Origin: Escherichia coli
GTDB taxonomy: Bacteria; Pseudomonadota; Gammaproteobacteria; Enterobacterales; Enterobacteriaceae
Direction: 5' to 3' (one strand)
Assembly (NCBI RefSeq): GCF_044647545.1
Contig: NZ_CP172818.1
Length of the DNA stretch: 64,000 nucleotides
Shown here: in pieces, positions 25,484-46,930 of the stretch
Position numbering within the stretch: position 1 is the stretch's first letter
How the letters are laid out: each line of letters starts with the position of its first letter
Notes under the pieces: model-generated
What the model was told of the DNA's origin: nothing
Seen by the model: the letters and a program-made list of their open reading frames with translations, nothing else
Databases searched by the model: none
Translations under genes and position numbers: made by a program

Positions 25484-25561
25484 TAGATTATCCTCGGCTT
25501 ATGCGTTCTGTCTGTTCCTCTATACGTTCTCCATCATTCCCGGTAATAAGGTCATGCAAAT

Positions 25562-26515
25562 TTAACTACGTAAAATCGCCGCTGCTGTATCCTGATCGGT
25601 AACCAGTGCGTTGATATAACCGCCTTTCATTGCAGCGGCAATTGCTTCGGCTTTATTTTCTCCCCCTGCCACGCCAACCCGGACGGGTATGGTCTTCAGC
25701 GCGCTTAAAGGTAAGCCAATCAGTTCGTTATGTATTTTAATATCCGTGACAACGTCACCTTTTGCATCAAAAAAGTAGCCTAAAATGTCGCCAACCGCCC
25801 CTTTTCGACCAATCATTAACTGTTCGCCCTGGCTGATATAGCCGGAGCGAATGATTGTTGCGTCGTCTTGTTGACTCACAGCCCCAATGCCGACAATCGC
25901 CACATCCGCTGCTTGCGCGGCTAGCAGAACATCTTTGACGCAATTTTCATTTTTTAACGTACGGGCAATGTCAGCGGAGGATGCCCGCAACGGAGCCGGA
26001 ATAATATTCACACTGCACGCCGCGTTAAGCTGCCCGATACCCGTCATATAAGAACCGACTCCACCGGAGAGCGTGACCAGGCGAATTTGCTGTGACGAAA
26101 TAAAACCACTTAAGCGTTGCAGCGTATTCATGGTTGCCTCGCCAAAACCAATCGCCAGCATCTGTTGTGGTTGAAGTAAACTCATCAACATATGCGCCGC
26201 GCCTATCCCTAGTCGCCCGCCGACATCAGCATCCGCAAGCCCTGGGATCACCCGGACATGTTGCAGCGAAAACTGACGACGTAATTGTGTTTCATATTCC
26301 AGACAGCCTTCAAAGCGAGAATTAATCTGTACGCGAATAATGCCGGATTGATGCCCTTTCTCCAGTAATCGCGACACTTTCAAACGGGTCAGGCCGAGAC
26401 GATCGCTGATCTCACTCTGGGTCAGCCCGTCATGGTAGTAAAACCACGCAATCCGCGCGACCTGTTCTTCTTCACACATTCCCTGTTCTGAAATTACCGA
26501 ATCGTTGATTGTCAT
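25562..26515 (-). CDS. lsrR: lsr operon repressor LsrR (SorC family), 317 aa
   Basis: N-terminal HTH and SorC-type sugar-phosphate-binding domain; divergent from lsrA. Confidence 0.9.
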
Positions 26516-26763
26516 AATTCATTCTTCACTTTGAACATACTTAAATCTTTAATGCAATTGTTCAGTTCTTGCGCATTTATATCTGTGATGGCAACCACAG
26601 TTTGACTCTATGAGTATGAACAAACGCAACCGTGAAAATCAAAATAGCATAAATTGTGATCTATTCGTCGGAAATATGTGCAATGTCCACCTAAGGTTAT
26701 GAACAAATTAAAAGCAGAAATACATTTGTTCAAAACTCACCTGCAAAACTGAACGGGGGAAAT
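26516..26763. promoter_or_regulatory. divergent lsrR / lsrA promoter-operator region
   Basis: 248-bp AT-rich intergenic region between divergently transcribed lsrR and lsrA; known site of LsrR and CRP control in K-12 (established knowledge, individual sites not mapped here). Confidence 0.6.
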
Positions 26764-28299
26764 ATGCAAACGAGTGATACCCGCGCGTTACCGCTACTTT
26801 GCGCCCGCTCGGTTTATAAACAGTATTCAGGAGTTAATGTCCTGAAAGGCATCGATTTTACGTTGCATCAGGGGGAGGTCCACGCCCTGCTCGGCGGCAA
26901 TGGTGCCGGTAAATCGACGTTAATGAAGATTATTGCCGGTATTACCCCTGCTGATAGCGGTACGCTGGAGATTGGGGGCAACAACTACGTCAGATTAACG
27001 CCAGTTCATGCTCATCAGCTGGGCATTTATCTCGTTCCCCAGGAACCGCTGCTTTTTCCAAGCCTGTCGATAAAAGAAAACATCCTGTTTGGTCTGGCAA
27101 AAAAACAACTCTCCATACAGAAAATGAATAACTTGCTGGCGGCGCTGGGCTGCCAGTTTGATCTGCATAGTCTGGCAGGATCGCTGGATGTCGCCGATCG
27201 CCAAATGGTGGAAATCCTCCGCGGGCTGATGCGCGATTCGCGAATTCTGATCCTCGATGAACCTACCGCCTCGCTTACTCCCGCCGAAACCGAACGTTTG
27301 TTTATTCGCTTGCGGGAGTTGCTTGCTACTGGCGTGGGTATTGTTTTTATCTCGCATAAGCTGCCGGAAATTCGCCAGATTGCCGACCGAATTAGCGTGA
27401 TGCGCGACGGAACCATCGCCTTAAGCGGCAAAACCAGCGAACTGTCTACCGACGACATTATTCAGGCCATTACGCCAGCGCTACGGGAAAAATCGCTCTC
27501 TGCCAGCCAAAAATTATGGCTGGAATTACCTGGCAACCGCCCACAACATGCCGCGGGAACGCCGGTGCTGACACTGGAAAATCTGACCGGCGAAGGTTTC
27601 AGGAATGTCAGCCTGACGCTCAATGCCGGAGAAATTCTGGGCCTGGCTGGGCTGGTGGGAGCCGGACGCACAGAACTGGCCGAGACGCTCTATGGTCTGC
27701 GTACTTTGCGTGGCGGACGCATTATGCTGAATGGTAAAGAGATCAATAGATTATCCACCGGAGAACGTTTACTGCGCGGTCTGGTTTATCTGCCGGAAGA
27801 TCGCCAGTCATCCGGACTTAATCTCGATGCTTCACTGGCGTGGAACGTCTGCGCCCTTACTCATAACCTTCGTGGATTCTGGGCGAAAACCGCGAAAGAT
27901 AACGCCACACTGGAACGTTATCGTCGGGCGCTGAATATTAAATTTAACCAACCGGAACAAGCTGCGCGGACCTTATCCGGCGGCAACCAGCAAAAAATCC
28001 TGATTGCCAAATGTCTGGAAGCTTCGCCGCAAGTTTTGATTGTCGATGAGCCGACGCGCGGCGTGGATGTCTCGGCGCGTAATGATATCTACCAACTGTT
28101 GCGCAGCATCGCCGCACAAAATGTGGCTGTGCTGCTTATCTCCTCTGATCTGGAAGAGATCGAACTGATGGCAGATCGCGTGTATGTGATGCATCAGGGC
28201 GAAATTGCCCACTCTGCACTGACCGGACGCGATATTAATGTCGAGACCATTATGCGCGTTGCCTTCGGAGATAGTCAGCGTCAGGAGGCGTCATGCTGA
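26764..28299 (+). CDS. lsrA: AI-2 ABC transporter ATP-binding protein LsrA, 511 aa
   Basis: Two ABC ATPase domains (Walker [10 protein letters not shown]; signature LSGGNQQK). Confidence 0.9.
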
Positions 28300-29321
28300 A
28301 ATTTATTCAGAACAACCGTGAAATCACGGCACTGCTGGCGGTGGTGCTGCTGTTTGTATTACCCGGTTTTCTCGACCGTCAGTATTTAAGTGTGCAAACG
28401 CTGACCATGGTTTATAGCAGCGCGCAAATCCTGATCCTGCTGGCAATGGGCGCGACGCTGGTAATGCTTACGCGCAATATTGATGTTTCAGTGGGTTCGA
28501 TTACCGGAATGTGCGCGGTGCTGTTGGGGATGTTACTGAACGCGGGGTATTCACTACCTGTTGCTTGTGTCGCGACTTTACTGCTTGGTTTGCTCGCGGG
28601 ATTTTTCAACGGTGTCCTGGTCGCGTGGCTAAAGATCCCTGCCATTGTTGCCACCCTTGGCACGTTAGGGTTGTACAGAGGCATCATGTTGCTGTGGACT
28701 GGCGGTAAATGGATTGAGGGATTACCCACCGAACTGAAACAACTCTCCGCCCCGCTGCTGTTTGGCGTTTCCGCGATTGGTTGGTTGACGATAATTCTGG
28801 TGGCATTTATGGCCTGGCTGCTGGCAAAGACGGCGTTTGGACGCAGTTTTTATGTCACGGGCGATAATTTACAGGGCGCTCGTCAACTGGGCGTTCGTAC
28901 GGAAGCCATTCGCATTGTGGCATTTTCGTTGAACGGCTGCATGGCGGCACTGGCGGGAATTGTGTTTGCTTCGCAGATTGGTTTTATCCCCAACCAGACC
29001 GGTACCGGGCTGGAGATGAAAGCAATTGCAGCCTGCGTGCTGGGCGGCATTAGTTTGCTCGGCGGTTCCGGCGCGATCATCGGTGCGGTACTCGGCGCAT
29101 GGTTCCTGACGCAGATCGATAGTGTACTGGTGCTGTTGCGCATTCCGGCATGGTGGAATGATTTTATCGCGGGCATGGTTCTGCTGGCGGTGCTGGTGTT
29201 TGATGGACGCCTGCGTTGTGCGCTGGAACGTAATCTGCGGCGGCAAAAATATGCCCGCTTTATGATGCCACCGCCATCCGTTAAACCCGCTTCGTCAGGT
29301 AAAAAACGGGAGGCCGCGTAA
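28293..29321 (+). CDS. lsrC: AI-2 ABC transporter permease LsrC, 342 aa
   Basis: Polytopic membrane ORF overlapping lsrA stop; synteny. Confidence 0.9.
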
Positions 29322-30313
29322 TGCGTATTCGCTACGGTTGGGAACTGGCTCTTGCCGCACTGCTCGTTATTGAGATTGTTGCATTTGGTGCAATTAACCC
29401 GCGGATGTTAGATCTCAATATGTTGCTGTTCAGCACCAGTGACTTTATCTGCATTGGCATTGTCGCCCTACCGCTGACGATGGTGATTGTCAGTGGTGGG
29501 ATCGATATTTCGTTTGGTTCGACCATCGGCCTCTGCGCCATTGCATTGGGCGTACTGTTTCAAAGTGGTGTGCCGATGCCGCTGGCGATTCTTCTGACCT
29601 TACTGCTCGGCGCATTGTGCGGGTTGATCAACGCCGGATTAATTATCTATACCAAAGTTAACCCGCTGGTGATTACGCTTGGCACGCTGTATCTGTTTGC
29701 CGGAAGCGCCCTGCTGCTTTCCGGGATGGCCGGAGCGACGGGGTACGAAGGTATTGGTGGATTCCCGATGGCGTTTACAGATTTCGCTAACCTGGATGTG
29801 CTGGGACTCCCCGTTCCGCTGATTATCTTCCTGATATGTCTCCTCGTTTTCTGGCTCTGGCTGCATAAAACCCATGCCGGACGTAACGTGTTTTTAATTG
29901 GGCAAAGCCCGCGTGTGGCGGTTTATAGCGCGATTCCAGTTAACCGCACCTTGTGTGCGCTCTATGCCATGACGGGGCTGGCGTCTGCGGTCGCCGCTGT
30001 GCTGCTGGTATCGTATTTTGGTTCAGCACGTTCCGATCTCGGTGCGTCGTTTCTGATGCCCGCCATCACCGCCGTAGTGCTCGGCGGTGCCAATATTTAT
30101 GGTGGTTCTGGTTCCATTATCGGCACCGCCATAGCGGTTTTATTAGTGGGATATTTGCAACAAGGTTTGCAAATGGCAGGAGTGCCAAATCAGGTGTCCA
30201 GCGCCCTTTCCGGTGCGCTACTTATCGTCGTTGTCGTAGGTCGTTCCGTTAGCCTGCATCGCCAGCAAATTAAAGAGTGGCTGGCGCGTCGGGCCAATAA
30301 CCCATTGCCATAA
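29321..30313 (+). CDS. lsrD: AI-2 ABC transporter permease LsrD, 330 aa
   Basis: Polytopic membrane ORF, start overlaps lsrC stop; synteny. Confidence 0.9.
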
Positions 30314-30324
30314 AGGATATCTTC

Positions 30325-31347
30325 ATGACACTTCATCGCTTTAAGAAAATCGCCTTACTTAGCGCGCTTGGCATTGCCGTAATCTCTATGAATGTGCAGG
30401 CGGCAGAGCGTATTGCATTTATTCCCAAACTGGTTGGCGTGGGATTTTTTACCAGCGGTGGCAACGGCGCACAACAAGCGGGTAAAGAGCTGGGCGTTGA
30501 TGTGACCTACGACGGGCCGACAGAACCCAGTGTTTCTGGTCAGGTACAGTTGATTAATAACTTCGTCAATCAGGGTTATAACGCCATTATCGTTTCTGCG
30601 GTTTCGCCTGATGGCTTGTGTCCGGCACTGAAACGCGCCATGCAACGTGGTGTGAGAGTGCTGACCTGGGACTCTGATACTAAACCGGAGTGCCGCTCTT
30701 ACTACATTAATCAGGGAACGCCCGCCCAGTTGGGAGGTATGTTGGTGGATATGGCGGCGCGTCAGGTGAATAAAGACAAAGCCAAAGTCGCGTTTTTCTA
30801 CTCAAGCCCCACCGTTACGGACCAAAACCAGTGGGTGAAAGAAGCGAAAGCGAAAATCGCCAAAGAGCATCCAGGCTGGGAAATTGTCACTACGCAGTTT
30901 GGCTATAACGATGCCACTAAATCGTTACAAACCGCAGAAGGAATATTAAAAGCCTATAGCGATCTCGACGCCATTATCGCCCCCGATGCCAATGCCCTGC
31001 CCGCTGCCGCACAAGCCGCAGAAAACCTGAAAAATGACAAAGTTGCGATTGTCGGATTCAGTACGCCAAACGTGATGCGTCCATATGTGGAACGCGGCAC
31101 GGTGAAAGAATTTGGCCTGTGGGATGTGGTTCAGCAAGGCAAAATTTCAGTTTATGTCGCGGATGCATTATTGAAAAAAGGATCAATGAAAACGGGCGAC
31201 AAGCTGGATATCCAGGGCGTAGGTCAGGTGGAAGTCTCGCCAAACAGCGTTCAGGGCTATGACTACGAAGCGGATGGTAATGGCATCGTACTGTTACCGG
31301 AGCGCGTGATATTCAACAAAGAGAATATCGGCAAATACGATTTCTGA
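30325..31347 (+). CDS. lsrB: AI-2 periplasmic binding protein LsrB, 340 aa
   Basis: Signal peptide plus periplasmic sugar-binding-protein fold length; synteny. Confidence 0.9.
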
Positions 31348-31373
31348 TGTGCATTACTTAACCGGAGTACGTT

Positions 31374-32249
31374 ATGGCAGATTTAGACGATATTAAAGAT
31401 GGTAAAGATTTTCGTACCGATCAACCGCAACAAAATATCCCTTTTATCCTGAAAGGTTGCGGTGCACTGGATTGGGGAATGCAGTCACGCTTATCGCGGA
31501 TATTTGATCCGAAAACGGGTAAAACCGTGATGCTGGCCTTTGATCATGGTTATTTTCAGGGGCCGACTACCGGACTTGAACGCATTGATATAAATATCGC
31601 CCCGCTGTTTGAACATGCAGATGTATTAATGTGTACGCGCGGCATTTTGCGCAGCGTAGTTCCCCCGGCGACCAATAAGCCGGTGGTACTGCGGGCGTCA
31701 GGTGCGAACTCTATTCTGGCGGAATTAAGTAATGAAGCCGTGGCGTTATCGATGGATGACGCCGTGCGCCTGAACAGTTGCGCGGTGGCGGCGCAGGTTT
31801 ATATCGGCAGCGAATATGAACATCAGTCGATCAAAAATATTATTCAGCTGGTCGATGCCGGAATGAAAGTGGGAATGCCGACCATGGCCGTGACAGGCGT
31901 GGGCAAAGATATGGTGCGCGATCAACGTTATTTCTCGCTCGCGACTCGAATCGCCGCTGAAATGGGGGCGCAGATTATCAAAACTTATTATGTCGATAAA
32001 GGTTTTGAACGGATTGTTGCCGGATGTCCGGTACCCATTGTTATTGCTGGCGGTAAAAAGTTACCGGAGCGCGAGGCGCTGGAAATGTGCTGGCAGGCTA
32101 TCGATCAGGGCGCTTCTGGTGTGGATATGGGACGTAATATTTTCCAGTCTGACCATCCGGTGGCGATGATGAAAGCCGTACAGGCGGTGGTACACCATAA
32201 CGAAACGGCTGATCGGGCATATGAACTCTATCTGAGTGAAAAACAGTAA
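31374..32249 (+). CDS. lsrF: 3-hydroxy-2,4-pentanedione-5-phosphate thiolase LsrF (aldolase-like), 291 aa
   Basis: Class I aldolase-like ORF following lsrB. Confidence 0.85.
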
Positions 32250-32272
32250 CTGCGGATTTAAGGAGAAGAATT

Positions 32273-32563
32273 ATGCACGTCACACTGGTTGAAATTAACG
32301 TTCATGAAGACAAGGTTGACGAGTTTATCGAAGTTTTTCGCCAGAACCACCTGGGCTCGGTACAGGAAGAAGGCAATTTGCGCTTCGATGTCTTACAGGA
32401 CCCGGAAGTGAATTCGCGCTTTTATATCTACGAAGCTTATAAAGATGAAGACGCAGTGGCGTTCCATAAAACCACGCCCCACTACAAAACCTGTGTCGCA
32501 AAACTGGAAGCTTTAATGACCGGGCCGCGTAAAAAACGTCTGTTCAATGGATTGATGCCGTGA
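32273..32563 (+). CDS. lsrG: phospho-AI-2 isomerase LsrG, 96 aa
   Basis: 96-aa ORF (antibiotic-biosynthesis-monooxygenase-like size) at end of lsr operon. Confidence 0.85.
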
Positions 32564-32619
32564 GGCGAATTTATCAGTTTTATCTACACTAGGGGTAACG
32601 CGCTGACGGGAGTAAAAAT

Positions 32620-33378
32620 ATGTCTGACTGGAACCCCTCTTTATATCTGCACTTTGCCGCTGAACGATCGCGTCCGGCGATGGAGCTGCTTGCCAGAGTG
32701 CCGCTGGAGAATATCGAATACGTTGCCGATCTTGGCTGTGGCCCAGGTAACAGCACCGCACTGCTGCATCAACGTTGGCCTGCTGCCAGAATAACGGGCA
32801 TCGACTCGTCTCCGGCGATGATTGCTGAAGCGCGCAGTGCTTTGCCAGACTGCCAGTTCGTGGAAGCAGACATCCGCAACTGGCAACCGGAACAGGCACT
32901 CGATCTGATTTTTGCTAATGCCTCACTGCAATGGCTGCCCGCCCACTACGAATTGTTCCCTCATCTGGTTTCTTTACTTAATTCGCATGGTGTGTTGGCA
33001 GTACAGATGCCAGATAACTGGCTAGAGCCAACCCATGTGCTCATGCGCGAAGTCGCCTGGGAACAAAATTATCCGGATCGCGGGCGTGAGCCGCTGGCTG
33101 GCGTTCATGCTTACTACGATATTTTGAGCGAAGCCGGATGTGAGGTCGATATCTGGCGAACCACTTACTATCACCAGATGCCGTCGCACCAGGCGATTAT
33201 CGATTGGGTGACCGCCACTGGATTACGTCCGTGGTTACAGGATCTGACCGAGAGCGAACAGCAGCATTTTCTTACGCGCTACCATCAGATGCTGGAAGAG
33301 CAGTATCCACTGCAAGAGAACGGAGAGATACTGCTGGCATTTCCGCGTCTGTTTATTGTTGCCCGGCGTACGGAGTAA
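32620..33378 (+). CDS. tam: trans-aconitate 2-methyltransferase Tam, 252 aa
   Basis: SAM-methyltransferase motif ([12 protein letters not shown]); synteny after lsrG. Confidence 0.85.
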
Positions 33379-33381
33379 ATA

Positions 33382-34296
33382 TTACGTCAGCTGGTAATGA
33401 CGATCGGGAAGAATTTTTGCTGGAATTTCTGCTTCATCGTTCATCTGTAACAGGTCAATTTCAATAGCGTTGCAGATGGCATCCAGCGGTAAATCATTGT
33501 TTTCAATACCGAAGGGATCTTCCAGTTCTTCCGCCAGACAATCCAGCGAAATAAAAGTGTAGGAAATCAGCACAGAGATAAAAGGCGTCATGTAATGCAG
33601 ATCCACGACCAGCGCGAACGGCAGCATGATACAAAACAGATAAACGGTACGATGCAAAATCAGGGTGTAGGCAAAGGGAATTGGCGTATAGGCAATGCGC
33701 TCGCAGCCTGCCAGAACCGCTGAAATATCGTTAAGCCGATCGTTGAGGCTAATAAACAGGATATCTGAAAGCTGCCCATTGCGGCGCTGAACCGCCAACC
33801 ACTCCCCCATTATTAACAAGATACGGTTAGCTGGAGAGTTCGAAGTCAGTACACGCTGAAGATCTTCCGTCTTGAGATATTGAGCCAGCACTTCCGCCTG
33901 TGGTTGTTTGCGTAATGTCATGCGTAAACAGTGAGCGAAGGCGATTTGCAGCCGGGCAAACTCCCTTACACTTGCCGAATCCGGCAATGTCGTTTTTACC
34001 TCGCGCAGTAACGACCGTGAGGCAATCATCAACTGCCCCCAAAGTTTTCGCGCTTCAACGTAACGGGCGTAACCGGCATTATTACGAAAACCAAGAAAAA
34101 TGGCGATGGCGACACCGAGAATGCTGAACGGTGCGAGGGTGAATTTGATGCCCAGATGCGTGTACCAGGGCAGCATGAAAATAACAGCGATAGAAAAGAG
34201 AAAATTGAGTAGTAAACGCGAGGATATCTTGGATAATACTGAGCCGTGCCAGACAAAAATACGGCGCAGCCAGTGTTGTTGTGGACGAACAATCAT
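33382..34296 (-). CDS. yneE: bestrophin-family membrane protein YneE, 304 aa
   Basis: ORF track 321 aa; trimmed to MIVRPQQHWLRRIF start (304 aa); multi-pass membrane protein. Confidence 0.75.
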   Translation of the reverse strand: MIVRPQQHWLRRIFVWHGSVLSKISSRLLLNFLFSIAVIFMLPWYTHLGIKFTLAPFSILGVAIAIFLGFRNNAGYARYVEARKLWGQLMIASRSLLREVKTTLPDSASVREFARLQIAFAHCLRMTLRKQPQAEVLAQYLKTEDLQRVLTSNSPANRILLIMGEWLAVQRRNGQLSDILFISLNDRLNDISAVLAGCERIAYTPIPFAYTLILHRTVYLFCIMLPFALVVDLHYMTPFISVLISYTFISLDCLAEELEDPFGIENNDLPLDAICNAIEIDLLQMNDEAEIPAKILPDRHYQLT

Positions 34297-34492
34297 GGTT
34301 ATCTTCAGGCGTGGAAAAGTCGCCCTATTAAACGTGATTACGATCACATTCTCAAGACACTACTTACAAATTACCTACAAGCTTACAACATTAACAGGTG
34401 CTGCATGTAGCACCTGTTAATGATAAAGGCACATAGGATGTTGTAACTAATATAGTGAAATAAGAAACCCGGTCGAAACCGGGTTCAGAGTA

Positions 34493-35944
34493 TTAGCACA
34501 ACGGACGTACAGCTTCGCGCATTCCTTTTTCGAGAATCGCATCCAGGTCATTAGCAACCTGCTCGACCAGACCAGGCACTTGCGTCAGGTCCTGCTCCCA
34601 GTGGTCTTTTTCTGCCAAAACAATCGCTACCAGTTCCTGGGTGCCGATAACACGGTTACGATGCTGGCTCCAGAGTTGCTGATAACGTTCCAGCCAGTGG
34701 GCATCGTCCTGTACCGGATATGTTTCTCCATTACGCTCACCGCGATAGAACGCAATCAATGCTGCTAATGCGAAAGTAAGGCGCGCCGGAAGTGTGCCGT
34801 TTGCCTTCTGCCCTGCCAGCAGCTGCGGCAGGATACGGGTGCGGAACTTGGTCATACCGTTGAGCGCGATAGACAGCAGCTGATGCTTAATGTACGGGTT
34901 ACGGAAACGCCCGGTGACAGCACTGGCGAAAGATTCCAGTTCATCACGAGGCAAATCCAGTACCGGAATAATCTCTTCGTAGATGGCTTTTTCAACGAAT
35001 GCGCAAATTTCAGCATCGTTCATCGCTTCACCTACGGTATCCAGCCCTGCCTGGAACGCCACCGGCACCAGCGCGGTGTGCGCACCGTTGAGGATTGCCA
35101 CTTTGCGCTCTTTATACGGTTTAATATCGTCAACAATCAGCACGTTGAGCGGATATTTGTCCAGACGCAGCTCAGTCGCTAAGGATTTCGGCCCCTGAAT
35201 CACAAACAGGTAAAAGTGTTCAGCGGTGTCGAGGAAACCATCGTGATAACCCAGTTCTTCTTCCAGTTTAGCCACTTCATCACGCGGATAGCCGGTAACG
35301 ATACGGTCCACCAGCGTAGAACAGAAGCTGTTAGCCTGATCCAGCCATTGAATAAATGCTTCTGGCAGTGCCCACTCTTGCGCGTAGCGCAGCACCAGTT
35401 CACGCAGTGCATCGCCGTTATAGTCGATCAGTTCACATGGTATGATGATCCAACCTTTATCCTGCGCTCCGTTGAAATGGCTAAAACGTTCGAACAGCAG
35501 ACGGGTCAGTTTTGCCGGATAACTTACCGCTGGCGCGTCATCGAATTTATCGCCCGCATGGTAGCTGATACCCGCTTCGGTGGTGTTAGAGAAAACAAAG
35601 CGCATTTCCGGGTTGTGCGCCAGTTTCAGGAATTCATCGTATTCACTGTAGACGCTGATTTCACGATTAACAGAGCGAATCAGACGCGCGTCGCTGACCG
35701 CTTCCCCCTTCTCGTTCAGACCACGGATAATGGTGGTGTACAGACCATCCTGCGTGCTCAGTGACGGCGGGAATGAAGTTTCAATCGGACGAACAACGAC
35801 CACGCCAGAATTCAGATCGGTGTGCTCATTCAGGAGATCGATTTGCCAGTCAACAAAGGCGCGCAGGAAGTTACCTTCACCAAACTGAATGATACGTTCT
35901 GGATACTGTGCACCGGGAAAATCGCGACGATTTAGTGTTTTCAC
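34493..35944 (-). CDS. uxaB: altronate oxidoreductase UxaB (tagaturonate reductase), 483 aa
   Basis: 483-aa mannitol-dehydrogenase-family ORF; synteny. Confidence 0.85.
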
Positions 35945-36171
35945 AATGGGTTCCCTTCTGATTAGTCATACAACCTGTTTGAATTGGTACGACAGGTTAG
36001 CAAACTTTAATACGCCGAACCCCTGTTTTGATCAACTCCTGATGATTAATGAGCAGTTTTATGAGAAAAGTGTGGCGCGGATCATGGTTTAATCGAGGAA
36101 CTACGCCTTTTATTCGCTCAATAAAGTGGTAGAACACATTCCATTTAAATCGCTGTGAATGAATAAAGATG

Positions 36172-37119
36172 TCAGACAACTTCCTCACCGTAACGCATAG
36201 TGCTGGTACGGTTGCGCCCATCTTTCTTCGAGCGATACAGACATGTATCGGCTTCGACCATCAATTTATTAAAGTCATCGGTCAGCGTTCGGTACGATGC
36301 GCAACCACTACCGACGCCAATACTTACCGTGAGATAAAGCGTTTTTTGTTGCCAGGTGAACGGTTGCAGTTCAACGCCTTTACGGATTTTTTCCGCCATT
36401 AGCAGACCATCGACAGGATTCACCGATGGCACTGCAACAGCAAATTCCTCGCCGCCCATTCGCGCCACCAGCCCCTTATCACCGACAATCTTCTGAATAT
36501 GCTGGGCAAACACGCTTAACACTTTATCGCCACATTCATGTCCATAGTTATCGTTAATGCTTTTGAAATAGTCGATATCAAGCAGCATGACAGTCAGATG
36601 TTGTGTCTGTTTCAGCGATGGACTTTTCAGCGCCTCATAAAGACCGGACCGTGAGTAAACCTGAGTCAGAAAATCAAAGTCGGCTCGCAGCGCAACTTGC
36701 TTCATTAGCGAATTGATCGCTGCCACGCTAAAAGAAACCATAATTGGGCATATCGCCATCGTGGCAATACCGAGACGTGCGGAGAACATTTCTGGAATGG
36801 AGAATGGCGAACCGACCGAGATATCAATCACCGAATTTGCCACCAGTACGATTTCCACCGCACCGGTGACAAAGGTCAACAGACATGTTACCTGCGGCGT
36901 ATAGCGCACTGCACACCAGATTAATGCAGGCAGCGGGAACGCCAGACTCCCCGCTCCGCCAATGACTACCGAGGCAATAACCGACACAATAAGCGCGATG
37001 GCGGGCATCATCTGTTCTGCTTTAAAGCGCGGCAGCACTCCCGGAATAGCCAACGTCAGCATACAAGGCACGATCAACACGCCCGTTGAGAATTGCTCAC
37101 TGAACCAGTCCGCAAGCAA
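36172..37119 (-). CDS. dgcF: membrane-anchored diguanylate cyclase DgcF (YneF), 315 aa
   Basis: N-terminal TM segments plus GGDEF-type domain with degenerate-looking motif RMGGEEF. Confidence 0.85.
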   Translation of the reverse strand: MLADWFSEQFSTGVLIVPCMLTLAIPGVLPRFKAEQMMPAIALIVSVIASVVIGGAGSLAFPLPALIWCAVRYTPQVTCLLTFVTGAVEIVLVANSVIDISVGSPFSIPEMFSARLGIATMAICPIMVSFSVAAINSLMKQVALRADFDFLTQVYSRSGLYEALKSPSLKQTQHLTVMLLDIDYFKSINDNYGHECGDKVLSVFAQHIQKIVGDKGLVARMGGEEFAVAVPSVNPVDGLLMAEKIRKGVELQPFTWQQKTLYLTVSIGVGSGCASYRTLTDDFNKLMVEADTCLYRSKKDGRNRTSTMRYGEEVV

Positions 37120-37199
37120 AGGCCAGAAATCCAGACTATCAATACTGACCGAACCAATCCCCCAAATACCATAATAATCGGCAATCAGACAGTAATTAA

Positions 37200-37500
37200 A
37201 TACCTAACACTTACTCTCATACTTATTTTTCCCCAAACCTTATCCCCACGACCAAACGACAAAAATAAACATCATATAGAAATTGATACCAGAAACCCCC
37301 CCATCTTTACACATAAACCACACCCACAAACGACGCAAGAAGACGATAAACCAAAAAAGAAAACCCCCCAAACGAAAAAAAAAAAAAGGAAAACCAAAAA
37401 AAAAAAAAAAAAAAAAAAAAAAAGAAAAAAAAAAGAAAAAAAAAAAAAAAAGAAAGGGAAAAAAATAAAAAAGAAAAAAAAAAAAAAAAAGATAGCATGT
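37200..37500. repeat. A/C-rich low-complexity block with long poly-A runs
   Basis: Plus strand nearly devoid of G/T from about 37200, then A-runs up to about 27 nt punctuated by single G (37376-37490); yields Lys-rich/Phe-rich spurious ORFs. Confidence 0.9.
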
Positions 37501-37563
37501 TCGCTGACAGCGGCGGCAAATAAAGATACCTAATGAATGCCATTTTATCGATTTCCGTAATTA

Positions 37564-37923
37564 TCATGGCTGATTCATCTGTATAACCAGCCAGTGATAG
37601 ATTACCGTCACAATATAACGTTGTTGCTCCTCACTTAACGCTTCCCCTTGAGGAATGTTATGCCACTTAGCCAGACAACCGCGACAACAGGTCGCGGTGG
37701 CGTGTTGAGCGATAAAAACCGGATGCCCGCGCATGGGGGTTTGCTTACCGTCGTTAGCCGGTAATGCCGGAGCAAGACGTTTAGCGACAAAATCCGCCGC
37801 ATGTTGTTCGATGACTGGCGCACCTTTCTCCAGACAATACTGACGCTCTTTCATGCCCAAACGAAAGCGAGAGCGAAATTTTGAACGGGATAAACGCGCG
37901 AAGAGTGGATCGAGAGACTGCAT
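37564..37923 (-). CDS. yneG: uncharacterised protein YneG (DUF4186), 119 aa
   Basis: 119-aa ORF whose start codon overlaps glsB stop by 1 nt; synteny. Confidence 0.8.
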   Translation of the reverse strand: MQSLDPLFARLSRSKFRSRFRLGMKERQYCLEKGAPVIEQHAADFVAKRLAPALPANDGKQTPMRGHPVFIAQHATATCCRGCLAKWHNIPQGEALSEEQQRYIVTVIYHWLVIQMNQP

Positions 37924-38849
37924 TAATAAACTGAACGCCCTAATTGTTTCGTCAATTGTTCAAGGACAGCAATGCCCGCAAGCGAGTTACCGGCATCATC
38001 CAGTTCCGGGCTCCAGACTGCGATGGCCATTTCATGCGGAACAATCGCCACAATACCGCCACCAACGCCAGATTTTGCCGGTAGTCCCACCCGCCAGGCA
38101 AACTCCCCCGCGTTCTGGTACATACCACTGGTCGCCATCAGCGCGTTAATTTGCCGCGCCTGCATTGGCGTCACCACAGGTTCATCAATATGAATAGCTT
38201 TACCCTGATTAGCCAGAAAGACAAACGTCCGGGCCAGCTCTACACAGCTCATTTTCAGAGCGCAGTAATGAAAGTAGTTTTGCAGAACGGTTGTCACATC
38301 ATGATGGAAATTGCCAAACGACTTCATCAGCCAGGCGATAGCCGCATTTCGCGCGGAGTGTTCAAATTCGGAACGCGCTACCACCGTATCGTAGGAAATA
38401 TCAGACACACCGCTTAAGCCGCGCACGACTTCCAGCATACGTTGCCGAGGAGCGCTTAATCGCCCTTGCAACATATCGCAGACCACCAGCGCACCGGCAT
38501 TAATAAACGGATTACGCGGAATACCCTGCTCCATTTCCAGTTGCACTAAAGAATTGAACGGTGATCCAGACGGATCTTTGCCGACGCGTTGCCAGATTTC
38601 CTCTTCGGAGTAATGACGCATGGCGACAACGAGACTCAGCACTTTGGAAATAGACTGAATGGAAAAACGTTCTTGCGCGTCTCCGGCCTGAAAAAGCTGT
38701 CCGTCAACGGTACAGATAGCAATCCCCAATCGGGAACCGTCTACCGTAGCCAGCGCCGGAATATAATCCGCGACTTTACCCTGACCAATGAGCGGCCGCA
38801 CTTGCCGCAAGATGTTTTCTAAAATTGCATTATCCATGGCGACTGCCAC
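37923..38849 (-). CDS. glsB: glutaminase 2 GlsB (YneH), 308 aa
   Basis: 308-aa serine-dependent glutaminase-family ORF; synteny. Confidence 0.85.
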
Positions 38850-38912
38850 TTTCTACTCCTGGACCGCAGGTCTGAAAAGACCTGCGAGTATATCAGAGCT
38901 GAATATATAGCG

Positions 38913-40301
38913 TCAGACCCGGTCTTTCCACACCGTCTGGATATTACAGAATTCGTGTAAGCCAAAATGGGAAAGCTCACGCCCAAAGCCACTCTTCTTC
39001 ACACCACCAAAGGCGACTCGCGCGTCGCTGGCACAGTAACCATTGATAAACACCCCACCGCATTCCAGACGTGCCGCCATCTGTCTGGCCCGGGTTTCGT
39101 CGGTGGTGAAAATGGTCGCTGAAAGGCCGAACTCGCTATTATTAGCCAGTTCCAGTGCATGTTCTGCATCTTTCGCAATGGTGATTGCCGCAACGGGGCC
39201 AAACATTTCTTCCCGAAACGCGGTCATTTCTGGGGTAACATTCGCCAGAACCGTTGGCGGATAGTAGTTACCTGCCCCAGCCATCTTTTCCCCGCCCAGT
39301 AACAAACGCGCACCCTGCGCCAGGGTTTTCTCCACCTGATGATGCAGCTCATCACGTAAATCAAAACGAGCCATTGGTCCGAGAGTGTTCTCTTCGTCAC
39401 GGGGATCGCCCATTTTCAAGGCTGCCGCAGCTGCCACAAAACGTTCGGTAAATGCCGAAGCAATTCCCTCTTCGATGATAAAGCGTTTTGCCGCTGCACA
39501 AACCTGTCCGGTATTCTGATAACGTCCGGCTACCGCCGCTTTAACCGCCAGTTCCAGATCGGCATCGTTAAGCACAATAAATGGATCCGAACCGCCCAGT
39601 TCCAGTACGCATTTTTTCAGTGCCGCTCCAGCCTGTGCGCCAATAGCCGCTCCCGCACGAACACTTCCGGTCACCGTGACAGCAGCAATGCGCGAGTCTT
39701 TAATCATCTGACTGACGCCGTCGTTGTCGGCATTCAGCCAGCCATATACGCCTTGTGGGATACCCGCATCTTTAAACACCTGGGCAATGAGCTGTGCACA
39801 GCCCATCACATTCGGCGCATGTTTAAGTAAGTAGCCGTTACCTGCAAGAATGATGGGAACCGCGCCACGCATCACCTGCCATAACGGAAAATTCCACGGC
39901 ATAATCGCCAGAATTGTCCCCAACGGTCGATACTCAATAACTGCCTGCTGATTTTCCACCAGCGTAGGTTCCGCCTTCAGCATTGCCGGACCATGTTCTG
40001 CATACCAGTCACACAAATTCGCCGATTTCGCCACTTCAGCGCGCGCCTGGTTGATTGGTTTGCCCATTTCACGGGTGATCATTTGCGCCATTTCTTCGCT
40101 ACGGACACGCAGAGCCTTACCGATATCACGCAGTTTTTCAGCACGATAATCTATATTTGTCTCGCGCCAGTCGCGAAAGCCTGCTGCCGCCAGCTGAAGT
40201 GCGTTTTCGATATCATCAGCGCCAGCCCACGGCAGCACAGAAAGTTGTTCACCGGTGGCAGGATTTATCGAAATTGCATGAGTTGCCGGAGTAATGGTCA
40301 T
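38913..40301 (-). CDS. sad: NAD-dependent succinate-semialdehyde dehydrogenase Sad (YneI), 462 aa
   Basis: Aldehyde dehydrogenase family (catalytic Cys region [13 protein letters not shown] motif). Confidence 0.85.
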
Positions 40302-40401
40302 CGGGGTATCTCCTTTATGGGTTATGGTAAAAAGATACGCAGATTTACTCTTGCTTGAAAATGAATAATATTAAGCCACTTATTCACGAATCGAGAATAT
40401 T

Positions 40402-41283
40402 ATGGATCTGACCCAACTGGAGATGTTCAACGCGGTTGCCGAAGCTGGCAGCATTACCCAGGCTGCAGCAAAAGTGCATCGCGTGCCGTCGAATCTCACT
40501 ACCCGTCTACGCCAGCTGGAAACAGAACTGGGGGTTGATCTGTTTATTCGCGAGAATCAGCGTTTACGTCTCTCGCCTGCCGGGCATAACTTTTTACGCT
40601 ATAGCCAACAAATTCTCGCGTTAGTGGATGAAGCGCGGAGCGTTGTCGCTGGCGATGAGCCGCAAGGTTTATTTTCTCTTGGTTCGCTGGAAAGCACCGC
40701 TGCAGTGCGCATTCCGGCCACGCTGGCGGAATTTAACCGTCGTTATCCCAAAATTCAGTTTTCACTTTCCACCGGCCCTTCCGGCACTATGCTGGAAGGT
40801 GTGCTGGAGGGAAAACTGAATGCAGCGTTTATTGATGGGCCCATTAACCATACTGCCATTGACGGGATACCGGTGTACCGCGAGGAGCTGATGATCGTCA
40901 CGCCACAAGGACATGCGCCAGTAACCCGCGCCAGTCAGGTAAATGGCAGTAACATTTATGCCTTCCGCGCCAATTGTTCGTATCGTCGCCACTTCGAGAG
41001 CTGGTTTCATGCTGATGGTGCCGCTCCGGGAACTATTCACGAGATGGAGTCGTATCACGGGATGTTGGCCTGTGTGGTCGCAGGAGCAGGCATTGCGCTT
41101 ATTCCACGCTCTATGCTGGAAAGTATGCCGGGGCATCACCAGGTTGAAGCGTGGCCGTTAGCTGAGCAATGGCGTTGGTTAACAACCTGGCTGGTCTGGC
41201 GTCGCGGTGCGAAAACGCGTCCGCTTGAGGCATTTATTCAACTACTGGATGCGCCTGACTCGGCAAAACAGGGTTACCAATGA
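40402..41283 (+). CDS. yneJ: LysR-family transcriptional regulator YneJ, 293 aa
   Basis: N-terminal LysR HTH ([23 protein letters not shown]), divergent from sad. Confidence 0.85.
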
Positions 41284-41360
41284 GCTATTTTTGATAGTTC
41301 TTGCGGCTAATATGCTCTATATAGTGATGTTCCGATGACTTATGACTATATGGGGCAAAT

Positions 41361-42476
41361 ATGGTTACGCCAGTAAGCATCAGCAATTACATATCTCTTC
41401 CTGATGATTTTCCCGTACGTAATATTGCACCGCAGGTAAAAGAAGTTTTAAAGGATTTCATTGATGCACTTAGTACAATAATATGTGATGAAGAATGGCG
41501 CACGTCTTTAAACATCAACTCAGCCACAAAAAAGATATTTAATAACCTTGACAACTTATCATATATTCAGAGGACTTCTTTTCGGGGTAACGACACGCTA
41601 TACAATGAAAAGGTTCAGTTTAAACTCACTTATCCCGTCAAGAATGGAAGACACAAAGAAAATATTGAATTTCAGGTAGTAATAAATTTAAGCCCTATTT
41701 ATTTAGATAATTTCCGCCATGATGGGGAAATTAATATTTTTTGCGCTCCCAACCCAAAGCCTGTCACTATGGGGCGCGTATTTCAGACCGGCGTCGAGCG
41801 TGTACTCTTTCTGTTTCTGAATGACTTTATAGAACAATTTCCAATAATCAACCCTGGCGTTCCTATCAAAAGAGCGCATACGCCACATATTGAACCCCTG
41901 CATCCGGATCACCATACCGCTGCAGATTACATACGCCAGTTTGATTTGCTTGTCCTGAATTTTATCTCTCGCGGTAATTTTGTCATACTCCCCCGATTAT
42001 GGAATAACTCTGAGGTTCACAGATGGTTCGGGAATAAAGAACCTAACTTGCTCACCGCTATTCTCGACATAACGGACAGCGAATTAAAAGAGGATTTATT
42101 GCAAAGTCTGATGGATTCACTAGGTTCTAACAAACATGTACTACCCGAAGTCTGCATCTGCTTTTTATCCCTTTTAGCAGAACAAGATTTTCCACATTTT
42201 CAGGAGTTGTTTTTATTTTTCGCCAATATGTTATTGCACTATCACCAATTTATGAAACCCAATGAAAGTGATTTGATTGACGTGTTGATGCCAGCATCAT
42301 TAAGTGATGATAAAATTATCAAACATATGGCGCGCAAGACCCTCAAACTTTTTGTAAAAAATGAAACGCCGCCAAAAGTTACTCATGAAGACCTGGTGAA
42401 AAACAGGCCTCGCTCCCCTGTCAGACCACCTATACCCGCAACCTCCAAAACGCCAGACCTCCCTGAACGTCATTAA
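41361..42476 (+). CDS. yneK: uncharacterised protein YneK, 371 aa
   Basis: 371-aa ORF, AT-rich codon usage unlike neighbours, no recognisable domain; synteny. Confidence 0.7.
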   Translation: MVTPVSISNYISLPDDFPVRNIAPQVKEVLKDFIDALSTIICDEEWRTSLNINSATKKIFNNLDNLSYIQRTSFRGNDTLYNEKVQFKLTYPVKNGRHKENIEFQVVINLSPIYLDNFRHDGEINIFCAPNPKPVTMGRVFQTGVERVLFLFLNDFIEQFPIINPGVPIKRAHTPHIEPLHPDHHTAADYIRQFDLLVLNFISRGNFVILPRLWNNSEVHRWFGNKEPNLLTAILDITDSELKEDLLQSLMDSLGSNKHVLPEVCICFLSLLAEQDFPHFQELFLFFANMLLHYHQFMKPNESDLIDVLMPASLSDDKIIKHMARKTLKLFVKNETPPKVTHEDLVKNRPRSPVRPPIPATSKTPDLPERH

Positions 42477-42625
42477 ACCGTGATGTGACCGACTCTCTGA
42501 CGCGTGAAAGAATCAGCGTCAGAGAAACGGAAAACGCGATCCAGATCACAAATGCATTGTATTCACATCATTAACCGTTTTAAGATCATTTCATCACTTT
42601 TTCGCAACTCACCCGATAATCTGTT

Positions 42626-43816
42626 ATGACAACAAACACTGTTTCCCGCAAAGTGGCGTGGCTACGGGTCGTTACGCTGGCAGTCGCCGCCTTCATCTTC
42701 AACACCACCGAATTTGTCCCAGTTGGCCTGCTCTCTGACATTGCGCAAAGTTTTCACATGCAAACCGCTCAGGTCGGCATTATGTTGACCATTTACGCAT
42801 GGGTAGTAGCGCTAATGTCATTGCCTTTTATGTTAATGACCAGCCAGGTTGAACGGCGCAAATTACTGATCTGCCTGTTTGTGGTGTTTATTGCCAGCCA
42901 CGTACTGTCGTTTTTATCGTGGAGTTTTACCGTTCTGGTGATCAGTCGCATTGGTGTGGCTTTTGCACATGCGATTTTCTGGTCGATTACGGCGTCTCTG
43001 GCGATCCGTATGGCTCCGGCCGGGAAGCGAGCGCAGGCTTTGAGTTTAATAGCCACCGGTACAGCACTGGCAATGGTATTAGGTTTACCTCTCGGGCGCA
43101 TTGTGGGGCAGTATTTCGGTTGGCGAATGACCTTCTTCGCGATTGGTATCGGGGCGCTTATCACCCTTTTGTGCCTGATTAAGTTACTTCCCTTACTGCC
43201 CAGTGAGCATTCCGGTTCGCTGAAAAGCCTCCCGCTATTATTCCGCCGCCCGGCATTGATGAGCATTTATTTGTTAACTGTGGTGGTTGTCACCGCCCAT
43301 TACACGGCATACAGCTATATCGAGCCTTTTGTGCAAAACATTGCGGGATTCAGCGCCAACTTTGCCACGGCATTACTGTTATTACTCGGTGGTGCGGGCA
43401 TTATTGGCAGCGTGATTTTCGGTAAACTGGGTAATCAGTATGCGTCTGCGTTGGTGAGTACGGCGATTGCGTTGTTGCTGGTGTGCCTGGCACTGCTGCT
43501 ACCTGCGGCGAACAGTGAAATACACCTCGGGGTGCTGAGTATTTTCTGGGGGATCGCGATGATGATCATCGGGCTTGGTATGCAGGTTAAAGTGCTGGCG
43601 CTGGCACCAGATGCTACCGACGTCGCGATGGCGCTATTCTCCGGGATATTTAATATTGGAATCGGCGCGGGTGCGTTGGTAGGTAATCAGGTCAGTCTGC
43701 ACTGGTCAATGTCGATGATTGGTTATGTGGGCGCGGTGCCTGCTTTTGCCGCGTTAATATGGTCAATCATCATTTTTCGCCGCTGGCCAGTGACACTCGA
43801 AGAACAGACGCAATAG
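42626..43816 (+). CDS. ydeA: MFS sugar efflux transporter YdeA, 396 aa
   Basis: 12-TM-type MFS ORF; synteny next to marC. Confidence 0.85.
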
Positions 43817-43820
43817 TTGA

Positions 43821-43842
43821 AAGGCCCATTCGGGCCTTTTTT
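43821..43842. terminator. bidirectional rho-independent terminator between convergent ydeA and marC
   Basis: Hairpin aaggccc-att-cgggcctt flanked by T-run on plus strand. Confidence 0.55.
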
Positions 43843-44506
43843 AGTGGTACGTTTTAATGATTTCCAGGATGCCGTTAATAATAAACTGCACCCCCATACA
43901 TACCAGCAGGAATCCCATCAGACGGGAGATCGCTTCAATGCCACCCTTGCCCACCAGCCGCATAATCGCGCCGGAGCTGCGTAGGCTTCCCCACAAAATA
44001 ACCGCCACCAGGAAAAAGATCAGCGGCGGCGCAACCATCAGTACCCAATCAGCAAAGGTTGAACTCTGACGCACTGTGGACGCCGAGCTAATAATCATCG
44101 CTATGGTTCCCGGACCGGCGGTACTTGGCATTGCCAGTGGTACAAAAGCAATATTGGCGCTGGGTTCATCTTCCAGCTCTTCCGACTTGCTTTTCGCTTC
44201 CGGTGAATCAATCGCTTTCTGTTGCGGAAAGAGCATCCGAAAACCGATAAACGCGACGATTAAGCCGCCTGCAATTCGCAGACCGGGAATCGAAATGCCA
44301 AATGTATCCATCACCAGTTGCCCGGCGTAATACGCCACCATCATGATGGCAAAGACGTACACCGAGGCCATCAACGACTGACGATTACGTTCGGCACTGT
44401 TCATGTTGCCTGCCAGGCCAAGAAATAACGCGACAGTTGTTAATGGGTTAGCTAACGGTAGTAACACCACCAGCCCCAGGCCAATTGCTTTAAATAAATC
44501 TAACAT
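43841..44506 (-). CDS. marC: inner membrane protein MarC, 221 aa
   Basis: Hydrophobic 221-aa ORF divergent from marRAB. Confidence 0.85.
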
Positions 44507-44654
44507 TGGTGGTTGTTATCCTGTGTATCTGGTTTATCAGCGAAAAGTATAAGGGGTAAACAACGATAAAGTGTCACTCTTTAGCTAACCTTGCATCGCA
44601 CTGACCAAAACTTGAACCGATTTAGCAAAACGTGGCATCGGTCAATTCATTCAT

Positions 44655-44717
44655 TTGACTTATACTTGCCTGGGCAATATTATCCCCTGCAACTAATTAC
44701 TTGCCAGGGCAACTAAT
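44655..44717 (+). promoter_or_regulatory. marO promoter-operator with two MarR-binding palindromes
   Basis: -35-like TTGACT followed by TACTTGCCTGGGCAATATTAT (site I) and TTGCCAGGGCAACTAAT (site II) immediately upstream of the GTG start of marR. Confidence 0.8.
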
Positions 44718-45152
44718 GTGAAAAGTACCAGCGATCTGTTCAATGAAATTATTCCATTGGGTCGCTTAATCCATATGGTTAATCAGAAGAAAGATCGCCT
44801 GCTTAACGAGTATCTGTCTCCGCTGGATATTACCGCGGCACAGTTTAAGGTGCTCTGCTCTATCCGCTGCGCGGAGTGTATTACTCCGGTTGAACTGAAA
44901 AAGGTATTGTCGGTCGACCTGGGGGCGCTGACCCGTATGCTGGATCGCCTGGTCTGTAAAGGCTGGGTGGAAAGGTTGCCGAACCCGAATGACAAGCGCG
45001 GCGTACTGGTAAAACTTACCACCAGCGGCGCGGCAATATGTGAACAATGCCATCAATTAGTTGGCCAGGACCTGCATCAAGAATTAACAAAAAACCTGAC
45101 GGCGGACGAAGTGGCAACACTTGAGCATTTGCTTAAGAAAGTCCTGCCGTAA
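44718..45152 (+). CDS. marR: multiple-antibiotic-resistance repressor MarR, 144 aa (GTG start)
   Basis: Winged-helix MarR-family ORF; first gene of marRAB. Confidence 0.9.
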
Positions 45153-45172
45153 ACAAAAAAAGAGGTATGACG

Positions 45173-45556
45173 ATGTCCAGACGCAATACTGACGCTATTA
45201 CCATTCATAGCATTTTGGACTGGATCGAGGACAACCTGGAATCGCCACTGTCACTGGAGAAAGTGTCAGAGCGTTCGGGTTACTCCAAATGGCACCTGCA
45301 ACGGATGTTTAAAAAAGAAACCGGTCATTCATTAGGCCAATACATCCGCAGCCGTAAGATGACGGAAATCGCGCAAAAGCTGAAGGAAAGTAACGAGCCG
45401 ATACTCTATCTGGCAGAACGATATGGCTTCGAGTCGCAACAAACTCTGACCCGAACCTTCAAAAATTACTTTGATGTTCCGCCGCATAAATACCGGATGA
45501 CCAATATGCAGGGCGAATCGCGCTTTTTACATCCATTAAATCATTACAACAGCTAG
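45173..45556 (+). CDS. marA: AraC/XylS-family activator MarA, 127 aa
   Basis: Trimmed to [46 protein letters not shown]... (127 aa); ORF track alternative start at 45167. Confidence 0.9.
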
Positions 45557-45587
45557 TTGAAAACGTGACAACGTCACTGAGGCAATC

Positions 45588-45806
45588 ATGAAACCACTTT
45601 TATCCGCAATAGCAGCTGCGCTTATTCTCTTTTCCGCGCAGGGCGTTGCGGAACAAACCACGCAGCAGTTTGTTACTTCCTGTGCCAATGTCGTGGTTGT
45701 TCCCCCATCGCAGGAACAACCACCGTTTGATTTAAATCACATGGGTACTGGCAGTGATAAGTCGGATGCGCTCGGCGTGCCCTATTATAATCAACACGCT
45801 ATGTAG
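45588..45806 (+). CDS. marB: periplasmic protein MarB, 72 aa
   Basis: 72-aa ORF with signal peptide, third gene of mar operon. Confidence 0.85.
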   Translation: MKPLLSAIAAALILFSAQGVAEQTTQQFVTSCANVVVVPPSQEQPPFDLNHMGTGSDKSDALGVPYYNQHAM

Positions 45807-45836
45807 TTTGTTCTGGCCCCGACATATCGGGGCTTA

Positions 45837-46736
45837 TTAACTTCCCACTTTTACCGCTTTACGCCACCGCAAGCCAAATACATTGATATACAGCCCGGTC
45901 ATAATGAGCACCGCACCGAAAAATTGCAGGCCCGTTAAGCGTTCATCCAGCAATAGTGCCGCACTTGCCAGTCCAACTACAGGCACCAGTAACGATAACG
46001 GTGCAACCCGCCAGGTTTCATAGCGTCCCAGTAACGTCCCCCAGATCCCATAACCAACAATTGTCGCCACAAACGCCAGATACATCAGAGACAAGATGGT
46101 GGTCATATCGATAGTAACCAGACTGTGAATCATGGTTGCGGAACCATCGAGAATCAGCGAGGCAACAAAGAAGGGAATGATTGGGATTAATGCGCTCCAG
46201 ATTACCAGCGACATCACCGCCGGACGCGTTGCGTGCGACATGATCTTTTTATTGAAGATGTTGCCACACGCCCAACTAAATGCTGCCGCCAGGGTCAACA
46301 TAAAGCCGAGCATCGCCACATGCTGACCGTTCAGACTATCTTCGATTAACACCAGTACGCCAAAAATCGCTAAGGCGATCCCCGCCAATTGTTTGCCATG
46401 CAGTCGCTCCCCGAAAGTAAACGCGCCAAGCACGATAGTAAAAAACGCCTGTGCCTGTAACACCAGCGAAGCCAGTCCAGCAGGCATACCAAAGTTAATG
46501 GCGCAGAACAGAAAGGCAAACTGCGCAAAACTGATGGTTAATCCATACCCCAGCAGCAAATTCAGTGGTACTTTCGGTCGTGCGACAAAAAAGATAGCCG
46601 GAAAAGCAACCAGCATAAAGCGCAAACCGGCCAACATCAGCGGTGGCATGTTATGAAGCCCCACTTTGATGACCACAAAATTTAGCCCCCATACGACCAC
46701 TACCAGTAGCGCCAACACCCCATCTTTTCGCGACAT
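45837..46736 (-). CDS. eamA: cysteine/O-acetylserine exporter EamA (YdeD), 299 aa
   Basis: ORF track 306 aa; trimmed to MSRKDGVLALLVVVVWGLNF start (299 aa); DMT-superfamily 10-TM protein. Confidence 0.85.
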   Translation of the reverse strand: MSRKDGVLALLVVVVWGLNFVVIKVGLHNMPPLMLAGLRFMLVAFPAIFFVARPKVPLNLLLGYGLTISFAQFAFLFCAINFGMPAGLASLVLQAQAFFTIVLGAFTFGERLHGKQLAGIALAIFGVLVLIEDSLNGQHVAMLGFMLTLAAAFSWACGNIFNKKIMSHATRPAVMSLVIWSALIPIIPFFVASLILDGSATMIHSLVTIDMTTILSLMYLAFVATIVGYGIWGTLLGRYETWRVAPLSLLVPVVGLASAALLLDERLTGLQFFGAVLIMTGLYINVFGLRWRKAVKVGS

Positions 46737-46930
46737 TCTACCGCCTCTGAATTTCATCTTTTGTAAGCAATCAACTTAGCTGAATTTACTTTTCTTTAAC
46801 AGTTGATTCGTTAGTCGCCGATTACGACGGCATTAATGCGCAAATAAGTCGCTATACTTCGGATTTTTGCCATGCTATTCCTTTACATCTCTAAAACAAA
46901 ACATAACGAAACGCACTGCCGGACAGACAA

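Follow-up and report, generated by a model that had tools for sequence, protein, structure and literature searches.

A garbled, A-rich tract at the start of dgcF in an Escherichia coli genome is very probably a consensus artefact of templating on MG1655

Results

The tract and its composition

The analysis of a 64,000-nt stretch of an Escherichia coli genome (contig NZ_CP172818.1; the whole stretch is called the window below) revealed a tract of 331 nt at the 5′ end of dgcF in which the sequence is garbled. With high confidence we attribute this tract to the assembly or consensus procedure of a genome templated on MG1655, and not to biology. This conclusion is based on alignment of the tract to dgcF, on the coincidence of its limits with a deletion junction of MG1655, on signs of templating elsewhere in the window and on a second genome that is garbled at the same junction.

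Comparison with intact genomes placed the tract at 37158-37490 on the plus strand, the first deviation being the deletion of a G at 37160 and the last one lying at 37490. The region 37160-37490 contains 198 A, 69 C, 25 G and 39 T residues, with runs of A of 13, 28 (37396-37423), 10, 16 and 17 nt. The composition was compared with that of the window outside both anomalous blocks, i.e. the tract and the sister block described below. In 37160-37290 G makes up a fraction of 0.061, while 131-nt windows elsewhere average 0.227 and never fall below 0.069; A accounts for a fraction of 0.834 in 37346-37490, and for at most 0.483 elsewhere. The initial annotation had reported an A/C-rich block with poly-A runs at 37130-37560, and a block with a composition far from normal is indeed present inside these coordinates. 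Its longest A-run, put at about 27 nt, measures 28 nt. The description of the block as almost free of G and T holds for G and was overstated for T, since 44 T are found in the 251 nt at 37130-37380 and T vanishes only after about 37290.

An Rfam scan of 36900-37800 gave no match at E≤1, and the tract is not an RNA gene. Three program-made open reading frames run through it: 37093-37533 (plus strand, 146 aa), 37283-37468 (plus strand, 61 aa) and 37307-37567 (minus strand, 86 aa). The first of these ends in a poly-lysine tail, and gene calls within the tract would be spurious.

The tract is collinear with the 5′ region of dgcF

In its typical form, as found in FDAARGOS_497 (locus L002) and in strain 201609 (locus L004; allele at NZ_CP048107.1 2660164-2661720), dgcF is a minus-strand gene of 1419 nt encoding 472 aa, with the GGDEF domain at residues 303-461, and a spacer of 138 nt separates it from yneG. 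The distance from the dgcF stop to yneG is 165 nt shorter in the window than in these two genomes. Global alignment of 37050-37560 with 201609 showed that the tract is collinear with the true dgcF sequence, that nearly every retained base matches and that the differences are almost all deletions. This indicates that the tract is a degraded copy of dgcF and not foreign or intergenic filler. As judged from the alignment, it is what is left of a 498-bp segment made up of codons 1-144 of dgcF (433 nt) and the 65 nt upstream of them.

The initial annotation had seen a low-complexity block between dgcF and yneG, where the dgcF promoter should be. A reading as foreign or low-complexity sequence in a promoter gap is not supported by the alignment. 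The placement between the two genes is correct only with respect to the K-12-style 315-aa open reading frame; when the ancestral 472-aa gene is taken as the reference, most of the tract falls within coding sequence. The judgement that it is not native E. coli sequence was borne out, in the sense that it is a degraded dgcF copy bounded by a deletion junction of MG1655. A mobile element or other foreign insertion was ruled out, since the tract is collinear with the 5′ sequence of dgcF, its open reading frames are poly-lysine junk and no Rfam match was found.

The alignment with 201609 also revealed the order in which bases were lost: G from 37160, T in addition from about 37290 and C in addition from about 37345. 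The tract can be divided into three zones. The first (37160-37290) has suffered chiefly G deletions, with A, C and T nearly all kept. In the second (37291-37345; 23 A, 21 C, 6 G and 5 T) both G and T are lost. The third (37346-37490) retains almost only A and a few G, with about 19 inserted A, and ends in an abrupt switch back to the correct sequence at gatagcatgttcgct. In the alignment, 205 out of 206 A residues are kept and 19 extra A are added. The true segment contains 167 A, 118 C, 110 T and 103 G, so that the bases survive in the order of their abundance (A > C > T > G); this match may be a coincidence.

Both flanks of the tract are intact. The 3′ 986 nt of dgcF, corresponding to codons 145-472 and including the GGDEF domain, are found at 36172-37157 on the minus strand. 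At 37491-37923, also on the minus strand, the rest of the dgcF-yneG spacer is followed by yneG (37564-37923), and the sequence is correct again when compared with 201609.

The limits of the tract coincide with a deletion in MG1655

DgcF of MG1655 (b1522, yneF) is annotated as a protein of 315 aa, which equals the program-made open reading frame of the window at 36172-37119 with a TTG start. When compared with the intact gene, MG1655 lacks exactly 498 bp (L002 2259-2756; the matching segments break at L002 2258/2757). In the window, alignment to MG1655 is interrupted between 37157 and 37489, and the yneG-dgcF junction of MG1655, 5′-ccgaaccaa|gatagcatg-3′, coincides with both ends of the tract. 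The breaks, the deviations at 37160-37490 and the junction all show that the extent of the tract is that of the segment missing from the template, MG1655. The alignment to MG1655 that the initial annotation had proposed as a check was decisive, as MG1655 has nothing between the two junction halves. Because MG1655 has no sequence here, the tract derives from the sample's own sequence.

The 5′-deleted dgcF allele of K-12 has the same flanks, the same junction positions and the same 315-aa open reading frame as the window. It differs in that nothing stands between 'ccgaaccaa' and 'gatagcatg', whereas the window has 331 nt of degraded sequence there. The possibility that the window simply carries a K-12-type deletion allele was ruled out on these grounds. 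Moreover, the presence of degraded ancestral sequence between the junction halves indicates that the strain that was sequenced had a full-length allele of 472 aa, and the dgcF of the organism is probably an intact, ordinary gene of this length. The altered dgcF expression that the initial annotation had considered would apply to the deposited sequence only and almost certainly not to the organism.

We surveyed 5426 complete E. coli genomes for the 498-bp segment. It is intact in 4197 of them (77%) and absent from 1229; the survey gave 4199 matching records, all but two at 95% identity or more. The 5′ truncation of K-12 type is accordingly a common polymorphism and not a peculiarity of K-12. 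Garbled copies were sought in the same genomes both with the tract and with the intact segment, and only one genome, BS-04, was found to have one. With the segment intact in most genomes, missing from the others and garbled in BS-04 alone, native conserved sequence and a natural homopolymer tract were ruled out.

A second genome is garbled at the same junction

The garbled tract of BS-04 (NZ_CP172819.1) lies at the same junction and covers exactly the interval missing from MG1655 (L001 2259-2713), the matching segments of MG1655 and BS-04 breaking at L001 2258/2714. The garbling is milder, 498 nt having been reduced to 455 nt, and the BS-04 tract is 74.6% identical to that of the window. The same first G residues are dropped in both, at ATAG^CGC, AATG^CGG and ACTGG^CTC.

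Over 90 kb, BS-04 shows full collinearity with MG1655. A stretch of 7 kb in its Qin prophage (L009 13000-20000) shows 0 differences to MG1655, against a backbone with 10-16 differences per kb; in the next 3 kb (L009 20000-23000) there are 93-162 differences per kb. BS-04 thus appears to be an MG1655-templated consensus too, and these signs mean that it is not an independent confirmation of the tract. The initial annotation had held that the same sequence in a reference genome would speak for a genuine tract; what BS-04 offers is a different garbling, in a genome that itself bears the marks of templating.

Several other features of this genome were recorded. Many genes of BS-04 are annotated as frameshifted or partial, and the genome (4.52 Mb) is smaller than that of MG1655. 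Within the garbled tract, at L001 2474-2602, PGAP annotates a 42-aa hypothetical protein (WP_400165721.1, MSQKNKKKRENPPPQGEKKKKWEPAETAKKKKKKGGKGKKKK), which is spurious. Between marB and eamA (L003 47975-48017) a G-poor stretch of about 40-50 nt stands in place of the terminator-like ctggccccgacatctcggggc, and eamA is annotated as truncated as a result; the same kind of garbling has probably occurred here on a small scale. A literature search on the BS-04 genome and on the dgcF truncation of K-12 gave nothing useful.

The window has the structure of MG1655 and the sequence of another strain

The best match to the window among the 5426 complete RefSeq E. coli genomes is strain 201609, with 99.7% identity over 22 kb. 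The sequenced strain is about 99.8-99.98% identical to 201609. There are two mismatches and no gaps in the 10.2 kb at 37487-47727, and only three SNPs at 19486-37159. Over about 40 kb this nearest relative, in which dgcF is intact, is separated from the window by a handful of SNPs. Near-identity to 201609 outside both anomalous blocks indicates that the garbling is local and does not reflect general read noise.

The divergence of the window from MG1655 is about 2.5% (2-3%; 10-15 differences per 500 nt), and all 64 kb are collinear with MG1655. Clean deletions of 233, 786 and 478 bp relative to MG1655 are carried into the window. No clean insertion of more than about 13 nt relative to MG1655 was found in the 64-kb window, and the only large insertion is the garbled one.

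Three further regions follow the structure of MG1655. The first is the hipBA segment at 17213-18898, which is absent from 201609 and shows 0 differences to MG1655 over about 1686 nt. Strain 201609 lacks hipBA at exactly the junction seen in the window. The real strain probably has no hipBA, and the copy in the window would stem from the template.

The second is found at 16372, where ydeT has a deletion junction of K-12 type, identical to that of MG1655, and where the window lacks 3.3 kb of fimbrial genes that 201609 possesses. In 201609 this 3.3-kb segment contains a fimA-like gene, a chaperone gene and the 5′ part of an usher gene. It is probably an insertion that the templated consensus could not take in.

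The third is the Qin region. To the right of 60203 the window follows the Qin gene order of MG1655 at 92-94% identity, and the prophage genes of 201609 are not the same. At 59500-63999, where 201609 has a different lambdoid prophage, as many as 77 differences from MG1655 were counted per 500 nt, and the part at 59500-60203 has about 60 differences per 500 nt from both MG1655 and 201609. The Qin region of the window looks like a chimeric consensus built from reads of related prophages.

A sister block at 6990-9225

A similar artefact is present at 6990-9225, where alignment to MG1655 showed that 10.3 kb of MG1655 sequence (pqqL, yddB, yddA, ydeM and ydeN) is reduced to about 2.2 kb. The changes are deletions alone; C is lost most, followed by T, and the left end has G-runs of 48 and 114 nt. 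The initial annotation had regarded the tract near dgcF as the opposite-strand counterpart in style of a block at 7440-9150, and we agree with this view: the process is the same on the other strand, with C dropout in the sister block and G dropout in the tract.

Within the sister block (7398-9225) the MG1655 allele is present at 32 out of 36 informative retained sites, and just past it the 201609 allele is present at 11 out of 11. Judged by these alleles, the block is template sequence that has been incompletely deleted. The real strain probably lacks the pqqL-ydeN region, or almost no reads covered it. The block degrades from right to left and does not represent an insertion relative to MG1655.

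Discussion

Proposed origin of the tract

The alignments show directly that the tract is collinear with dgcF, that it coincides exactly with what MG1655 has lost and that both assemblies are templated on MG1655. An explanation that would unite these observations is as follows. Reads of a non-K-12 strain close to 201609 would have been mapped onto MG1655 as a template, which a pileup-type step of consensus calling or polishing would then have edited. Such a procedure would correctly carry over SNPs and small indels, as well as deletions with respect to MG1655. Template regions without reads would stay MG1655, and large insertions would be ignored. As the strain has the dgcF segment and MG1655 does not, its reads would show a 498-nt insertion at a single template position. 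We suppose that the inserted bases were put into insertion columns counted from the left anchor, without mutual realignment of the reads. The register would then decay away from the left anchor, the support for each column would be diluted and the caller would increasingly emit no base. Eventually only A, the commonest base that forms runs, would survive, and the correct sequence would come back abruptly at the next template position. The decay in the tract does grow with the distance from the left anchor, and recovery takes place at the first template base on the right. The same mechanism acting at the same template junction would account for the milder garbling in BS-04. A neural pileup polisher similar to medaka, applied to the reference, may have been the caller.

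This scheme was explored in a toy simulation, in which 60 noisy copies of the true 498 nt were subjected to column-wise voting without realignment, with optional removal of ambiguous columns. The simulation reproduced the decay from left to right, homopolymer smears (C-, G- and A-runs), enrichment in A and, when ambiguous columns were dropped, the shortening of the segment. Its output closely resembles the BS-04 tract. It failed on two points. Over its first 130 nt the tract has lost G strongly and selectively but has kept about 95-100% of each of the other three bases, and almost no A is missing; neither feature emerged from the voting. For this reason we have to postulate that the caller had a further base-specific bias, which a neural polisher with a strong gap prior in insertion columns could introduce. 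An account based on left-anchored insertion columns cannot explain the sister block, which is no insertion and in which the degradation runs from right to left. A second mode would be needed there, either a deletion carried out only in part or very scarce reads.

Alternative explanations

The alternative that survives best is a de novo assembly of a mixed sample, in which a clinical-type strain was contaminated with K-12, reads were gapped at indels and repeated polishing deleted bases erratically. Such a mixture would also tie the garbling to boundaries of K-12 indels, and it would account for the MG1655-identical stretches and for the MG1655 alleles in 6990-9225. It does not readily explain why the insertion structure is all that of MG1655 (hipBA kept, the 3.3-kb fimbrial segment absent, Qin gene order) while all SNPs are those of the other strain, as the structure expected from a de novo assembler is that of the majority strain. 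In addition, the exact 7 kb of MG1655 Qin beside heavily chimeric consensus in BS-04 is typical of mapping to a template. We consider a mixed sample quite unlikely.

Less probable still is that a poor raw long read, its signal decaying into a homopolymer, was left unpolished at a chance position in a de novo assembly. The progressive 5′ to 3′ decay into homopolymer followed by abrupt recovery is what such a read would produce, and the very high quality of the flanks would be expected after short-read polishing that was unable to map into the junk. Chance, however, would not place the start of the tract 3 nt past a deletion junction of MG1655 and its end exactly at that junction. Nor would it bring about the recurrence at the same junction, with the same first G residues dropped, in the assembly of a second lineage. 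The MG1655-identical hipBA segment and the MG1655 alleles of the sister block would also remain unexplained.

That the tract is a real, strain-specific allele, in which the 5′ end of dgcF has decayed to A-rich sequence in this lineage, is scarcely credible in spite of the A-rich tract at the same place in BS-04: no mutational process is known that would remove first G, next T and finally C in a polar manner while sparing nearly every A, the two tracts diverge from each other next to normal flanks in each strain, the nearest relative is intact and BS-04 alone of the genomes surveyed is garbled, and both garbled genomes bear independent signs of templating on MG1655. It would be just as extraordinary for both tracts to be real, as this would take polar, base-selective decay of the dgcF 5′ end arising independently in two lineages at the site of the K-12 deletion.

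Three technical causes other than consensus building on a template were also considered. Homolog-based polishing with relatives lacking the segment is not favoured, as the nearest relatives all carry it and the polar decay would not be explained. The poly-G chemistry of two-colour short-read sequencing, in which G is dark, was rejected because what is seen are deletions spanning hundreds to thousands of bases, and not substitutions confined to the length of a read. Short-read polishers with local reassembly are unlikely, since their output is either accurate sequence or nothing.

Consequences for sequence records

If the tract is a product of consensus building on an MG1655 template, as we believe, it holds no new biology, and neither loss of the dgcF promoter nor an effect on c-di-GMP signalling should be concluded from this sequence. 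The consequences concern data quality. The genome containing the window and at least one RefSeq 'complete genome', BS-04, look like consensus sequences templated on MG1655 and not like assemblies. Records of this kind may contain K-12 segments that the strains do not have, such as hipBA and parts of Qin, and may lack DNA specific to the strain. Garbled tracts break genes, as seen from the dgcF pseudogene in the window and the truncated eamA in BS-04, and spurious proteins reach the databases, as with the poly-lysine WP_400165721.1. A garbled tract with limits that match an indel relative to MG1655 can serve as a flag for such records.

Comparison with known systems

Natural poly(A) and other simple-sequence tracts, for example phase-variable homopolymers, resemble the tract in having A-runs beside the 5′ end of a gene. 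These natural tracts are short and common to relatives, whereas the tract of the window replaces conserved coding sequence and is found garbled elsewhere only in BS-04.

Junk arising at the level of reads, through signal failure in long-read sequencing or poly-G in two-colour sequencing, likewise has long homopolymers and a skewed composition, comparable to the run of 28 A in the tract and the runs of 48 and 114 G in the sister block. Unlike such junk, that of the window is collinear with real sequence, is bounded by indels of the template and is reproducible in two assemblies; moreover, the sister block carries alleles of the template.

The closest likeness is to the reference bias of reference-guided bacterial consensus sequences. 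In these, the structure of the template is kept and uncovered regions are left unchanged, as with hipBA in the window and Qin in BS-04; insertions of the sample are lost or mis-built, and reads from paralogous prophages give rise to chimeric consensus. The difference is that insertions are usually omitted, whereas in the window a 498-nt insertion was partly written, with dropout of G, T and C passing into poly-A. Base-selective dropout ending in poly-A is an unusual and recognisable signature of a mis-built insertion.
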